From Escherichia coli (GTDB lineage: Bacteria; Pseudomonadota; Gammaproteobacteria; Enterobacterales; Enterobacteriaceae): a DNA stretch of 64,000 nucleotides. The position numbers and the translations under genes are program-made. The notes beneath the pieces were generated by a model. It did not search any database. It was not told the DNA's origin and saw nothing but the letters and a program-made list of their open reading frames with translations. This document shows, in pieces, positions 47,408-48,907 of the stretch; position 1 is the stretch's first letter; each line of letters opens with the position of its first letter. The DNA is taken from assembly GCF_003018235.1 (NCBI RefSeq), contig NZ_CP027439.1; one strand, given 5' to 3'.

Positions 47408-47663
47408 TACACGCTCGTAAGCGGCCCTGACGGCCCGCTAACGCGGAGATACGCCCCAACTTCGGGTAAACCCTCGTCGGGACCACTCCGACAGCGCACA
47501 GAAGCTCTTTCATGGCTGAAAGCGGGTATAGTCTGGCAGGGCTGGGGATGGGTAAGGTGAAATCTATCAATCAGTACCGGCTTACGCCGGGCTTCGGCGG
47601 TTTTACTCCGGTATCACATGTAACCACAGCGTGCCGCCTTCCATGCCGCTGGCGCGGCATATC
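47408..47663 (+). repeat. Paralogous structured non-coding element, copy A (candidate sRNA or cis-regulatory RNA)
   Basis: About 80% identical to 48657..48907 (my estimate); conserved hairpins (gcggccctgacggcccgc; ccggc-ttac-gccgg; ggcttcggcgg followed by TTTT); no conserved reading frame. Confidence 0.6.
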
Positions 47664-47724
47664 CTGGTGACGATATCTGAATCGTTATATACTGCGTATA
47701 TATGTGGTAATGACGGGGTGATAA

Positions 47725-47994
47725 ATGGCACAGGTTAATATGAGTTTAAGAATTGACGCTGAACTGAAGGATGCTTTTATGGCCGCTGCAAAAAGCATGG
47801 ACCGTAATGGCTCTCAGTTAATCCGGGATTTTATGCGCCAGACCGTGGAACGGCAGCATAATACCTGGTTCCGTGACCAGGTTGCGGAAGGACGTCAGCA
47901 ACTCGAGCGCGGCGATGTGCTTCCCCATGACATGGTCGAATCTTCTGCTGCTGCATGGCGGGATGAAATGAGCAGGAAGGTTGCCGGTAAATGA
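47725..47994 (+). CDS. Ribbon-helix-helix antitoxin-like protein (RelB/DinJ/ParD-type)
   Basis: MAQVNMSLRIDAELKDAFMAAAKSMDRNGSQLIRDFMRQ matches the RHH pattern; putative -35/-10 and RBS at the 3' end of element A; stop overlaps the next ATG (ATGA). Confidence 0.7.
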   Translation: MAQVNMSLRIDAELKDAFMAAAKSMDRNGSQLIRDFMRQTVERQHNTWFRDQVAEGRQQLERGDVLPHDMVESSAAAWRDEMSRKVAGK

Positions 47995-48568
47995 TGGAGA
48001 TATTCTGGACCATGCTGGCCAGCCAGGCCGGACTGACTTGGGAAGGGCAGGCACACTCAGCGATCGCCGACGCACGGATGACGGCAGGTGTGGTAAACGC
48101 TATTGCTGCATATCATCTGGAACTACTGCAGGAACAGGCTCGGCTGAAAAACTTGAAAAGGATTATCTGGCTGAAGTGGCTAATTACAGTAACGACCGCT
48201 GGGAAGCACCGCAACGTGCCTCACGCCTGGCTGCCAGCGTAAAGCGTTACAAGACATCAGAAATGCTGCGCTTTATTCTTGCTACCATTGCCTACGATCC
48301 CGATCCAGATTTAACCCCGCTGACTGTGAGACGTTTGTGCAAGGCATTGTTCGGCAGAACCGGAAGCCAGTGGCTGGTTGTTGAAGTTTTTGGGGAGAAG
48401 GGGCGTCAGCACAGCAGCGCGGACAGTAATCCGGAGATGGTGGAAAAAATGGCTGCCAGATATCGTCACGCCGCCGAACTACACTGGTCCGCAACGCTGG
48501 CAGAAATTGAACGGGTAAAGCGGCTTTATCAGACGAAAATTAAGAAATCCAAAAAAGAAGTGGGTTGA
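47991..48568 (+). pseudogene. Decayed ORF coupled to the RHH gene; possible remnant of a DEDDh-type exonuclease or toxin
   Basis: ATG 47991 overlaps the RHH stop. Frame 0 (47991..48242) contains an Exo III-like motif HSAIADARMTAGVVNAIA; the coding-like signal continues in another frame (47981..48568), implying a frameshift near 48130. Confidence 0.3.
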
Positions 48569-48656
48569 CTGCCATTGTTATTCTTTTCCTTCATCATTAA
48601 TGCTAATGTATGGTGCGTTAAGCGTACAATAATTTCGAATATCCAAACTGATCTCA

Positions 48657-48907
48657 TACACGCTCGTAAGCGGCCCTGACGGCCCGCTTACGCGGAGATA
48701 TGCCCCGGCGGCGGGTAACCTTCTTGCCGGGATTACTCCGACCGCGCACAGAAGCATTTTCATCGCTGACAGGCTGCATGGCCTCGCAGAGAGGGGAACT
48801 GGTGACATCCGGACAACCTACCGGCTTACGTCGGGCTTCGGCGGTTTTACTTTGGCAGCATATTACACCACAGCGTGCCGCCTTACATGTCGCTGACGCG
48901 ACATCTG
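48657..48907 (+). repeat. Paralogous structured non-coding element, copy B
   Basis: Direct-orientation paralogue of 47408..47663; hairpin atgtcgc-tgac-gcgacat (48887..48904) differs from the copy A hairpin atgccgc-tggc-gcggcat by compensatory changes. Confidence 0.6.

Follow-up and report, generated by a model that had tools for sequence, protein, structure and literature searches.

Two direct repeats, one of them beside an IncFII replication origin, are related to the ssiE signal of plasmid F

The two repeats and their surroundings

The window, that is, the whole stretch of 64,000 nucleotides of Escherichia coli DNA that was analysed (contig NZ_CP027439.1), contains two copies of an element of about 250 bp in direct orientation. 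Copy A occupies 47408..47663 and copy B 48657..48907; both are assigned to the minus strand, and each is a complete bipartite element of the ssi kind described below. The RHH antitoxin gene yacA (47725..47994, plus strand) lies between them. An earlier note on this DNA had described two direct paralogous repeats flanking an RHH gene, and the arrangement was found as described. BLASTN aligned 47403-47660 with 48653-48904 at 77.7% identity over 260 columns (E 6.5e-52), which means that the identity of about 80% and the coordinates given in that note were accurate within a few bases. The alignment consists of three ungapped blocks with identities of 90% (62 nt), 73% (81 nt), and 85% (86 nt). The offsets of these blocks from copy A to copy B are 1249, 1250, and 1244 nt, respectively; in other words, indels of +1 and -6 nt separate them. 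A 21-base bipartite pattern derived from the two copies occurred twice in the window and in none of 100 shuffles.

Copy A is part of an IncFII origin backbone, in which repA is followed by the DnaA box, the ter pair, and copy A. The DnaA box TTATCCACA (46986..46994, plus strand) marks the left end of oriR downstream of repA (45939-46808) and is identical in R100. Two Tus-binding ter sites follow, GAGTGTTGTAACTA at 47217..47230 on the minus strand and GAATGTTGTAACTA at 47352..47365 on the plus strand. They are the left and right members of an inverted pair, together form the inverted repeat I15, and the right member is 43 bp upstream of copy A. The ter pattern GNRNGTTGTAACKA has exactly two matches in the window, against 0.04 expected. 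In R1, two ter sites are placed between oriR and the leading-strand start (review, PMC10331603). By its coordinates, the region of copy A overlaps the ORF historically named repA4 (PMC2762410), and repA4 was scored as required for maintenance in a transposon screen of pEC958 (PMC4398462).

Copy A is orthologous to the region downstream of the origin in R100, to which it is 94% identical; the same figure applies from repA through the origin, the ter pair, and the element. Identities of 90-98% were found in at least 5000 PLSDB plasmids, and the position relative to the origin is fixed across thousands of plasmids. In the IncI-gamma/K replicon, the same element is located 594 bp after the rep gene. 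The R1/R100 site downstream of oriR, about 400 bp from it, is presumably the "G site" of older work. Masai and Arai (1989), Bernander et al. (1992), and Tanaka et al. (1994) are said to have described this G site as a primase-dependent leading-strand start downstream of oriR. Copy A is at the same locus, past oriR and just beyond both ter sites and on the leading-strand template; its template strand and its direction are those expected if replication runs one way, away from repA, and it differs from the R100 site by a few substitutions only. Copy B differs from the G site in its divergence as a paralogue (about 78%) and in that no origin adjoins it.

Neither an origin nor a ter site adjoins copy B, which in this respect resembles the stand-alone members, namely ssiE and that of pCP301, and the ORF list holds no gene close downstream of it on the plus strand. 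Near-identical sequences were found only in pSCU-111-1 (99.7%) and in E. albertii pEA36_2 (about 91%). The plasmid pO26-L is without copy B, and its homology to the window ends 8 nt into copy B. Plasmids carrying yacABC seemed to be homologous to the right end of copy B, but this proved to be an artefact of joined pieces: the query copy B had been aligned to their copy A. To our knowledge, copy B has not been described before. The duplicated arrangement is rare and probably reflects recombination between plasmid lineages, not a new mechanism.

Both yacA and yacB are annotated in the relatives L001 and L052. In the window, yacA is now an orphan because yacB has been deleted, as mapping of the deletion indicated. 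The 62 bp between copy A and yacA contain a 7-bp inverted repeat, and the homology between R100 and the window ends about 50 bp beyond copy A. These 62 bp are outside the paralogous unit and gave no consensus promoter in the scan, nor did copy A itself; the suggestion that copy A supplies the promoter of the RHH gene is not supported.

The core module and its relation to ssiE

The right part of each copy forms a core module on the minus strand. In copy A this G-site-like core (47525..47661) contains the hairpins H1 (47643-47660) and H2b (47577-47590) and the long-range helix H3 (47596-47600 with 47634-47638), which encloses a variable hairpin. In copy B (48776..48905), H1 is at 48887-48904, H3 is intact, and H2b has one A.C mismatch; the variable spacer has a 6-nt deletion. 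H1 carries a compensatory C-G to T-A change in copy B: the pair ATGCCGC-TGGC-GCGGCAT and ATGTCGC-TGAC-GCGACAT, reported earlier from inspection of the letters, was recovered at 47643-47660 and 48887-48904.

The right ~135 nt of each copy are homologous to F ssiE, on the opposite strand (D90180; Nomura et al., 1991). Three collinear blocks in reverse orientation are common to ssiE and the copies, and identity is confined to them: H1 plus GGAAGGC, the GCCGAAGCCC hairpin block, and the CCTGCCAGAC block with CTG. A profile built from copies A and B alone matched F at 65395-65566 (E 4.1e-6) and the reverse strand of the ssiE deposit D90180 (E 7e-6), and the family profile matched the copy A core with an E value of 1.9e-41 and the copy B core with 9.6e-30. 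The sequence of ssiE is given in the supplement to PMC11541004. It and the copies have their active strand in common, and the helices are kept via double substitutions, whereas the left ~120-nt module is missing from ssiE. Furthermore, ssiE adjoins oriT in the leading region and has no replication origin beside it. From the homology to an experimentally isolated ssi and the common active strand, both copies are assigned, as judged by sequence, to the plasmid ssi/G-site family. The view that the repeats belong to no named family therefore has to be revised: the right half is that of ssiE, and copy A is the IncFII G site inside "repA4".

We take F ssiE to be of the primase (G4) type. The assignment of the family to the DnaG-primase type reportedly goes back to Nomura et al. 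(1991), Masai and Arai (1989), and Tanaka et al. (1994).

A genome-wide pattern scan for relatives gave about 30 true members, among which 25 distinct core sequences were compared. The trinucleotide 5'-CTG-3' is invariant in all 25, and the search pattern did not demand it. In copy B it corresponds to the plus-strand CAG at 48787-48789. In copy A the plus-strand CAG is at 47537-47539, from which the primer start would be A47538, with synthesis running rightwards.

With a hand-given structure for these 25 relatives, 91.5% of the positions in the three helices were paired, compared with at most 43% when the partners were slid. Double substitutions were found in four helix pairs, and the covariation score was reached by none of 500 shuffles, in a set that covers about six lineages and in which the search pattern had predetermined parts of H3 and H2b. 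The stem variants are ATGCCGC/GCGGCAT, ATGTCGC/GCGACAT, and ATGCGC/GCGCAT, together with GGCGG/CCGCC and GGCCA/TGGCC, and CCGGC/GCCGG and CCCGC/GCGGG. RNAalifold on a MAFFT alignment recovered H3 and missed H1 because the 6- and 7-bp stems were misaligned; H1 was scored instead by a per-sequence hairpin table and the hand-given structure. In the wobble-pair strand comparison, G.T intermediates occurred on both strands. The fold z-scores favour the minus strand modestly, and that of the copy B core (-0.96) is no better than shuffles.

A third member was found in the window, the ssiE orthologue at 9498..9634 on the minus strand, between a DUF932-type leading-region gene and an orf169-type transglycosylase gene beside oriT. 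It is 96.3% identical to D90180 over 190 nt, with a profile E value of 5.6e-25. All three members in the window belong to the minus strand, opposite to the tra genes, which are encoded on the plus strand. The minus strand serves as leading-strand template and is also the one transferred in conjugation. Copies within one plasmid are always on the same strand: this applies to the pairs in L001, L022, and L030, the three copies in L041/L042, and the four in L005. In F-like plasmids, this common strand is the transferred one. Members are located at IncFII and IncI/K origins, at oriT (ssiE), and upstream of toxin-antitoxin modules (the window and pCP301). In the IncX-like L041/L042 they occupy three intergenic gaps of a VirB-type transfer operon, and the Shigella virulence plasmids have 3-5 family places each.

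The left module and other readings of the repeats

The left module of copy A (47408..47500, minus strand) is a closing stem with two hairpins, that is, a three-way junction, and is 3' of the CTG on the template strand. When it is folded as DNA, its minus strand has a z-score of -3.1 and its plus strand one of -1.2; stable folds of the junction were obtained with z-scores of -3.1 and -4.0. Across 11 variants it is almost invariant, with changes mostly in loops, and it is more strictly conserved than the core. In the type C relatives, it is swapped for a different sequence that also folds into two hairpins. The halves occur apart as well: the left half stands alone at 40662-40786 of F (E 7.7e-11), the core stands alone in ssiE and in the L041/L042 copies, and the two are separated in E. 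albertii pEA36_2. These features might indicate a composite element, in which the right half is a priming signal and the left ~120 nt are a separate site, such as a primosome assembly site of the PriA (phiX174) type, another ssi, or a binding platform for a further protein. Such a composite would be compatible with the priming function preferred here, which leaves the left module unexplained, and ssiE does without this module.

The hexamer AAGCGG is common to PriA recognition sites, and it is present on the plus strand of copies A and B. Furthermore, two ssi signals have reportedly been found in the R1 derivative pSY343. The n'-pas, or phiX174-type PriA-dependent sites, are also hairpin-containing ssi signals near plasmid origins. 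However, AAGCGG is missing from both strands of the left half in type C, and the fold of the left module prefers the minus strand, as does that of the core, and not the lagging-strand template. The resemblance to n'-pas is a lead only, and the composite explanation is considered rather doubtful.

Several other explanations were weighed for the repeats as a whole. Reading frames of 52-76 aa are present on both strands of the repeat region, and in some records the matching segment is labelled "RepA4" or hypothetical protein, as would suit a protein-coding region, be it the old repA4 ORF or hypothetical-protein ORFs on the minus strand. However, the +1 and -6 nt indels between the conserved blocks break the frame, and the minus-strand ORFs through copies A and B (62 and 76 aa) have only about 14 residues in common, with SAMK.LLCAVGV as the only common stretch, and then diverge. 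In addition, the annotated "RepA4" pieces vary in strand and length between records, and conservation tracks stems, not codons. The claim that no reading frame is common to the two copies is thus upheld, and a coding function, rejected on the frame-breaking indels, is scarcely credible. The bracketing of yacA might alternatively suggest a mobilised cassette, with the repeats as remnants or ends of an IS or MITE, or as a site-specific recombination site. The family is dispersed, as its several places on each Shigella virulence plasmid illustrate, and plasmid homology often breaks near the element edges, as in R100 past copy A, in pO26-L within copy B, and between the rearranged halves in E. albertii. 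These breakpoints are equally explained by homologous recombination between 250-bp repeats. Neither terminal inverted repeats nor target duplications were present at 47408/47663 and 48657/48907, and the MITE assignment was rejected on the missing terminal repeats. There is no associated transposase, the internal structure and the CTG are conserved on copies that always share a strand, and copy A does not change its place relative to the origin. A mobile origin of the repeats therefore seems highly improbable.

A structured RNA, such as an sRNA, an RNA antitoxin, or a 5' leader ending at the GGCUUCGGCGGUUUU hairpin, would also be expected to show hairpins with compensatory changes, and changes between G-C and A-T cannot tell the strands apart. 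A toxin-antitoxin gene adjoins, and the terminator-like hairpin with its T-run, ggcttcggcggtttt, is indeed present in both copies and was flagged there with its GTTTTAC. However, no more than four T's make up the T-run, and the ssiE-type and L041-type relatives have lost it but keep the hairpin block; terminator-like sites are not enriched in the region (4 against 2.0 +/- 1.6 in shuffles). In the Rfam search proposed earlier, neither copy had a match at the permissive threshold of E<=1: cmscan over 40000-55000 returned only the AS-pc02, CopA, and rep pseudoknot models. A sigma-70-like promoter scan of 47100-49100 on both strands found no -35/-10 pair with at least 9/12 matches. Moreover, yacAB is a protein (type II) system, and the same element is found beside unrelated genes and beside oriT. 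Of the earlier alternative between a structured RNA and a DNA-level site, it is thus the DNA-level site that fits, through homology to the ssi family, and an RNA is very improbable. The promoter scan bears equally on a ssDNA promoter of the Frpo kind, in which the folded minus strand would let host RNA polymerase start a plus-sense transcript into adjacent genes (yacA; tir-pemIK of R100; the ParE-type toxin-antitoxin pair of pCP301). In four contexts (yacA, pCP301 CP0217, R100 tir, and an IncI/K plasmid) the orientation suits such a transcript, which would reach the start of a gene 59-90 bp to the right of H1. New ssDNA promoter classes that have no homology to Frpo have been found recently (PMC12672017), Samuel et al. 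group ssiE with Frpo sequences, and recent papers list Frpo-type and ssiE-type signals together as "ssi". Frpo/ssiD and ssi1-3 of ColIb-P9 are ssDNA promoters for RNA polymerase; as is proposed for the present family, they act only when folded on the transferred strand, and they can give primers. Two Frpo homologues were identified in the window by sequence similarity (2350-2699 and 7767-8116), on the minus strand as are the family members. The copies, however, do not resemble ssiD/Frpo in sequence, nor the ssi sequences of ColIb-P9 (two tested: Frpo1 and Frpo2), and their fold is a series of short hairpins and lacks the single long stem by which a promoter with -35/-10 boxes would be rebuilt. 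Copy B has no plus-strand gene close downstream, and an RNA from ssiE would run antisense into the orf169-type gene and so serve no gene. A promoter of the Frpo kind is thus improbable, and the enzyme suggested for copies A and B is primase.

Proposed mode of action and meaning for plasmid biology

Both repeats are probably primase-dependent G-site (G4-type) ssi signals that act as folded DNA, only while the minus strand is single-stranded, and not as RNA, copy A being the known R1/R100 site and copy B a rare extra paralogue. At copy A, RepA would open oriR, and a helicase would unwind the DNA rightwards beyond the ter pair. SSB would coat the exposed minus strand except for the folded H1, H2b, and H3 with its enclosed variable hairpin. 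DnaG primase might then bind the folded DNA directly and lay down a short RNA primer opposite the invariant 5'-CTG-3', with A47538 as the putative start and rightward synthesis. DNA polymerase III would then extend this primer into the leading strand. Copy B has diverged from copy A but is on the same strand, 1.25 kb to its right, and may act in the same way, as may the third member, the ssiE orthologue at 9.5 kb. Since the three members are on the leading-strand template, which is the transferred strand, they could also prime the complementary strand in the recipient.

In outline, the same working is seen in phage G4 oric, where, from the G4 annotation and sequence, hairpins are folded on an SSB-coated strand and primase starts at a 5'-CTG-3' located 3' of a hairpin. 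A short resemblance near the start, CCCTACTGCAAAGCC against CCCTGCCAGACC, was noticed by eye (CCCT..CTGC). However, the number and arrangement of hairpins differ, and profile searches found no similarity between the G4 complementary-strand origin and copies A and B; the relation is considered to be a functional analogy and not one of sequence family. BLASTN of copy A against a phage collection gave one chance 35-nt match only.

Tentatively, the core module might be viewed as defining a family of primase entry sites that are dispersed and locked to one strand and that recent plasmid-establishment work has largely left out, and the left three-way junction as an accessory domain so far undescribed. 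Family members could also serve as 250-bp homology patches for the exchange of cargo modules downstream of the origin.

On this view, the repeats duplicate a plasmid DNA signal known from earlier work, the single-strand initiation site just past the IncFII origin, and no new RNA is involved. In the plasmids in which it was found at 90-98% identity, the element is unannotated or mislabelled as "hypothetical protein" or "RepA4"; it is considered to work as DNA and so is absent from Rfam. Correct naming removes a recurring false lead for a "novel structured RNA". Copy A marks the presumed leading-strand start of a plasmid family that is very common among resistance and virulence plasmids, inside the region scored as required for maintenance. 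Recent plasmid-establishment papers use "ssi" as a synonym for RNA-polymerase promoters, and in such work the conversion of the entering strand was rifampicin-resistant and primed repeatedly. For these rifampicin-resistant priming sites on the entering strand, primase-type ssi signals located on the transferred strand offer a concrete candidate.

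Two repeats related to a single-strand initiation signal

The two elements that flank yacA, copy A (47408-47663) and copy B (48657-48907), were compared by BLASTN within the window. The segments 47403-47660 and 48653-48904 showed 77.7% identity over 260 columns in direct orientation (E 6.5e-52); the paralogous direct repeats described in the earlier note are thus real, and its estimate of about 80% and its coordinates were accurate. The repeat finder divided the match into three ungapped blocks of 62, 81 and 86 nt (90%, 73% and 85% identity), whose start-to-start offsets are 1249, 1250 and 1244 nt. 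This means that indels of +1 and -6 nt separate the blocks, and a common reading frame is impossible, as had been noticed; the minus-strand ORFs through the two copies have only about 14 residues in common. The compensatory substitution quoted at that time is also present. Helix H1 is ATGCCGC-TGGC-GCGGCAT in copy A (47643-47660) and ATGTCGC-TGAC-GCGACAT in copy B (48887-48904), a double change from C-G to T-A. In short, the observation was correct and its interpretation partly wrong.

A profile built from copies A and B alone was searched over the whole F plasmid and gave two partial matches, one of the left half at F 40662-40786 (E 7.7e-11) and one of the right half at F 65395-65566 (E 4.1e-6). 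The latter adjoins oriT and is the reverse complement of ssiE (GenBank D90180), a member of the set of single-strand initiation (ssi) sequences reportedly isolated by Nomura et al. in 1991. The right half is therefore homologous to a named element, contrary to the view that the repeats belong to no named family: copy A was already known, and copy B adds one more member of this kind. Direct comparison of copy A with ssiE gave three collinear blocks in reverse orientation (profile E 7e-6), the deposited ssi strand being the minus strand of the window. In the same comparison, ssiD/Frpo and the single-strand promoters Frpo1 and Frpo2 of ColIb-P9 gave no match. Samuel et al. 2024 (PMC11541004) give the ssiE sequence in their supplementary file 4.

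Conserved core, helices and strand

Relatives were collected from one genome per species with the pattern CATGNAAGGC-N(30-45)-GCCGAAGCCCNNCG, which gave 43 loci, about 30 of them true relatives. Many loci are in metagenome-bin contigs of unrelated phyla and are evidently stray enterobacterial plasmid fragments. Near-identical IncF fragments (L010-L044) were found in assemblies labelled Streptomyces morookaense, Bacteroidota, Lachnospiraceae, Collinsella, Sporosarcina and others, likely through contamination or mis-binning; the element of L019, labelled Streptomyces morookaense, is one base off that of R100.

The common core of about 135 nt consists, on the ssi strand, of H1, GGAAGGCGGCAC, a variable stretch with a central CATATG or ACATGT, AAACCGCCGAAGCCCGGCGTAAGCCGG, an AT-rich variable stretch, and CCCTGC.A..CC. 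The CTG of this last block, which is outside the search pattern, is kept in all 25 distinct sequences. H1 occurs as ATGCCGC/GCGGCAT, ATGTCGC/GCGACAT or ATGCGC/GCGCAT, the long-range helix H3 as GGCGG/CCGCC or GGCCA/TGGCC, and H2b as CCGGC/GCCGG or CCCGC/GCGGG. These three helices pair 91.5% of the alignment cells, versus 26-43% when the partners are slid. The covariation check on homologues, suggested in the earlier note, gave double substitutions at four pairs and a score reached by none of 500 shuffles, for only about six lineages; the search pattern itself had fixed parts of H3 and H2b.

Could the helices belong to an RNA? The earlier note had proposed a structured RNA (or a DNA-level recognition site) with an intrinsic terminator, and a hairpin with a four-T run is indeed present in both copies. 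The run is missing, however, in ssiE and the L041 variant, in which the hairpin block is retained, and this block takes part in H3. Terminator-like sites were not enriched (4 versus 2.0 +/- 1.6 in shuffles), and promoter-like sites were absent from both strands of 47100-49100, where 2.0 were expected by chance. The Rfam search asked for in that note gave no covariance-model match in either copy, even at E<=1. These results do not support a structured RNA.

The window has exactly three matches to the family profile, and the minus strand carries all of them: the cores of copy A (47525-47661, E 1.9e-41) and copy B (48776-48905, E 9.6e-30), and an ssiE orthologue (9498-9634, E 5.6e-25; 96% identity to D90180) located between a DUF932-type gene and an orf169-type transglycosylase gene beside oriT. 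F-like plasmids transfer the strand that serves as template for the tra genes. Since traM, traJ, traY and traA are on the plus strand, and deposited ssiD and ssiE are each the complement of the coding orientation, the minus strand is the transferred strand. A fork that moves from oriR in the direction away from repA also uses this strand as its leading-strand template. Among the multi-copy plasmids that could be read, each carries its copies on one strand: two in pSCU-111-1, four in E. albertii pEA36_2, two each in L022 and L030, three in L041/L042 and three in the window. Two Frpo/ssiD homologues in the leading region, at 2350-2699 and 7767-8116 (96% and 88% identity to D90178), are on the minus strand as well, like the three family members.

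G.T intermediates occur on both strands, and such wobble pairs leave the folding strand undecided. Predicted DNA folding prefers the minus strand only modestly: z is -3.1 versus -1.2 (plus) for the left module, the left ~120 nt, of copy A, -4.0 versus -3.0 for that of copy B, and -2.8 versus -2.6 for the copy A core. The copy B core folds no better than shuffles (z -0.96 minus, -0.48 plus).

The IncFII replicon, yacA and copy B

The surroundings of the repeats are a textbook IncFII replicon, with copB (45400-45660), CopA RNA (45777-45866; Rfam, 89.9 bits), the repA ORF (45939-46808), a DnaA box TTATCCACA (46986-46994) and an inverted pair of Tus ter sites at 47217-47230 (minus) and 47352-47365 (plus). 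In all 64 kb, GNRNGTTGTAACKA matches these two sites and no other, against 0.04 matches expected. Copy A starts 43 bp past the second ter site. Identity to R100 is 94-95% from repA through about 50 bp past copy A; beyond this point, the window has yacA, versus tir and pemIK in R100. Copy A occurs at 90-98% identity in at least 5000 PLSDB plasmids, mostly without annotation or named "hypothetical protein". In R1, the ter pair is between oriR and the leading-strand start (review, PMC10331603), which places this start at, or just past, the position of copy A. The repA4 fragments of pEntH10407, 363-751 bp beyond the repA1 stop (PMC2762410), correspond to about 47171-47559, and the copy A region thus overlaps the historical repA4 ORF; repA4 was needed for stable maintenance in a transposon screen of pEC958 (PMC4398462). 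Upstream of the replicon, a full-length Rfam match (178 bits) to AS-pc02, an antisense RNA first described on pHK01, is at 43466-43651 (minus).

Copy A had also been regarded as supplying the likely promoter of the RHH gene yacA (47725-47994, plus). No promoter-like site was found in 47100-49100, nor any sign of yacA regulation by the element, and the 62 bp separating the two are outside the repeat. This spacer contains a perfect 7-bp inverted repeat, TATATAC-TGC-GTATATA (47687-47703), which looks like an operator; a variant is upstream of tir in R100, which marks it as IncFII backbone sequence and not yacA-specific. At the junction 47991-48030, about 1 kb of pSCU-111-1 (2052-3087) is missing, with two overlapping repeats of about 24 bp at the endpoints. 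The deletion removed yacB after codon ~11 and most of a 3'-5' exonuclease gene, and yacA is now an antitoxin that has lost its toxin.

Complete copy B is rare, being found at 99.7% identity in pSCU-111-1 and about 91% in E. albertii pEA36_2; the next-best matches (84%) include Shigella virulence plasmids with three to five family copies apiece. Ordinary yacABC plasmids such as pO26-L have no copy B, their homology to the window ending 8 nt inside its left end; apparent homology to its right end was an artefact of joined BLAST pieces. Copy B keeps H1, H3 and the CTG and has one H2b mismatch and a 6-nt deletion in the variable spacer, and accordingly looks functional. At the start of a truncated tannase/feruloyl-esterase region, a perfect 17-bp inverted repeat, GGTGCCAGTTCCATGGC / GCCATGGAACTGGCACC, 7 nt apart, is at 49340-49380.

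Elsewhere, in pCP301, a related mosaic copy that has no rep gene with it is followed 66 bp downstream by a different RHH/ParE-type pair, and in an IncI-gamma/K plasmid the element is 594 bp past the rep gene. A gene start 59-90 bp beyond H1 is recurrent, which may reflect co-orientation of genes with replication. In a VirB-type transfer operon (contig JAFAFL010000064.1), three diverged copies (L041 349-409 and 4726-4786, L042 7667-7727) are intergenic. One precedes a VirB1-like gene, another separates VirB4-like from VirB5-like genes, and the third follows a coupling-protein gene; all three are on the coding strand, and in each case the next gene begins 60-100 nt further downstream.

Proposed priming and the left module

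The evidence fits best with a core that serves as a priming signal for primase. The analysis established that it is homologous to an isolated ssi and where it lies, together with its strand, its helices and its conserved CTG; we infer the enzyme, the nucleotide at which priming starts and that copy B is active. The R1/R100 element is presumably the "G site", a "G4-type" ssi in Nomura's terms, and primase-dependent; these names and the primase dependence reportedly come from Masai and Arai in 1989, Nomura et al. in 1991 and Tanaka et al. in 1994. On a single-stranded minus strand covered by SSB, the core hairpins would remain folded, and DnaG would bind the folded core and begin the primer across from the T in the invariant CTG. 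In copy A, this corresponds to the plus-strand CAG at 47537-47539, with A47538 as the putative first primer nucleotide, and in copy B to the CAG at 48787-48789. The primer would be extended rightwards, away from the origin. With an oriR of 188 bp that begins at the DnaA box, the putative copy A start is about 365 bp past the right end of oriR, compatible with a distance of about 400 bp in R1. The same mode is known from the phage G4 complementary-strand origin, with three hairpins and a primer start at the T of a CTG (position 3997), but BLASTN of copy A and profile searches found no sequence homology between that origin and this family.

The left ~120 nt are a distinct unit. In copy A (47408-47500), a closing stem and two hairpins are predicted; across 11 variants the module is near-invariant, substitutions being mostly in loops, and a compensatory change distinguishes copies A and B (CCCGAC/GTCGGG versus CCCGGC/GCCGGG). 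Type C relatives (E. albertii pEA36_2 4956-5286; Pantoea, L008) have a different left sequence, also with two hairpins. The module is missing from ssiE and the L041/L042 copies and stands alone in F at 40.7 kb. The core alone probably suffices for priming, since ssiE was active as an isolated 190-nt ssi fragment that lacks the module. The left module could then be an accessory domain or a second ssi, either of which is compatible with priming by the core. The F copy (40662-40786) is partly degenerate and about 3 kb from the RepFIB rep gene. A 16-nt motif of the module, CCGACAGCGCACA(A/G)AA (47488-47503 and 48738-48753), recurs in the interval from the repA stop to the DnaA box (46865-46880, 15/16 matches), which by a rough estimate could be chance. 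In E. albertii pEA36_2, four core copies and separated halves are at 3753-3867, 4956-5431, 34297-34648 and 36231-36370, and a type A left module is fused directly to a complete type C element beside the IncFII origin. This arrangement suggests repeated recombination within the ssi family.

The ssi family is without annotation in current databases, and in recent papers the term ssi is equated with promoters for RNA polymerase. A very recent report describes repeated, rifampicin-resistant priming on the entering strand and does not name the sites.
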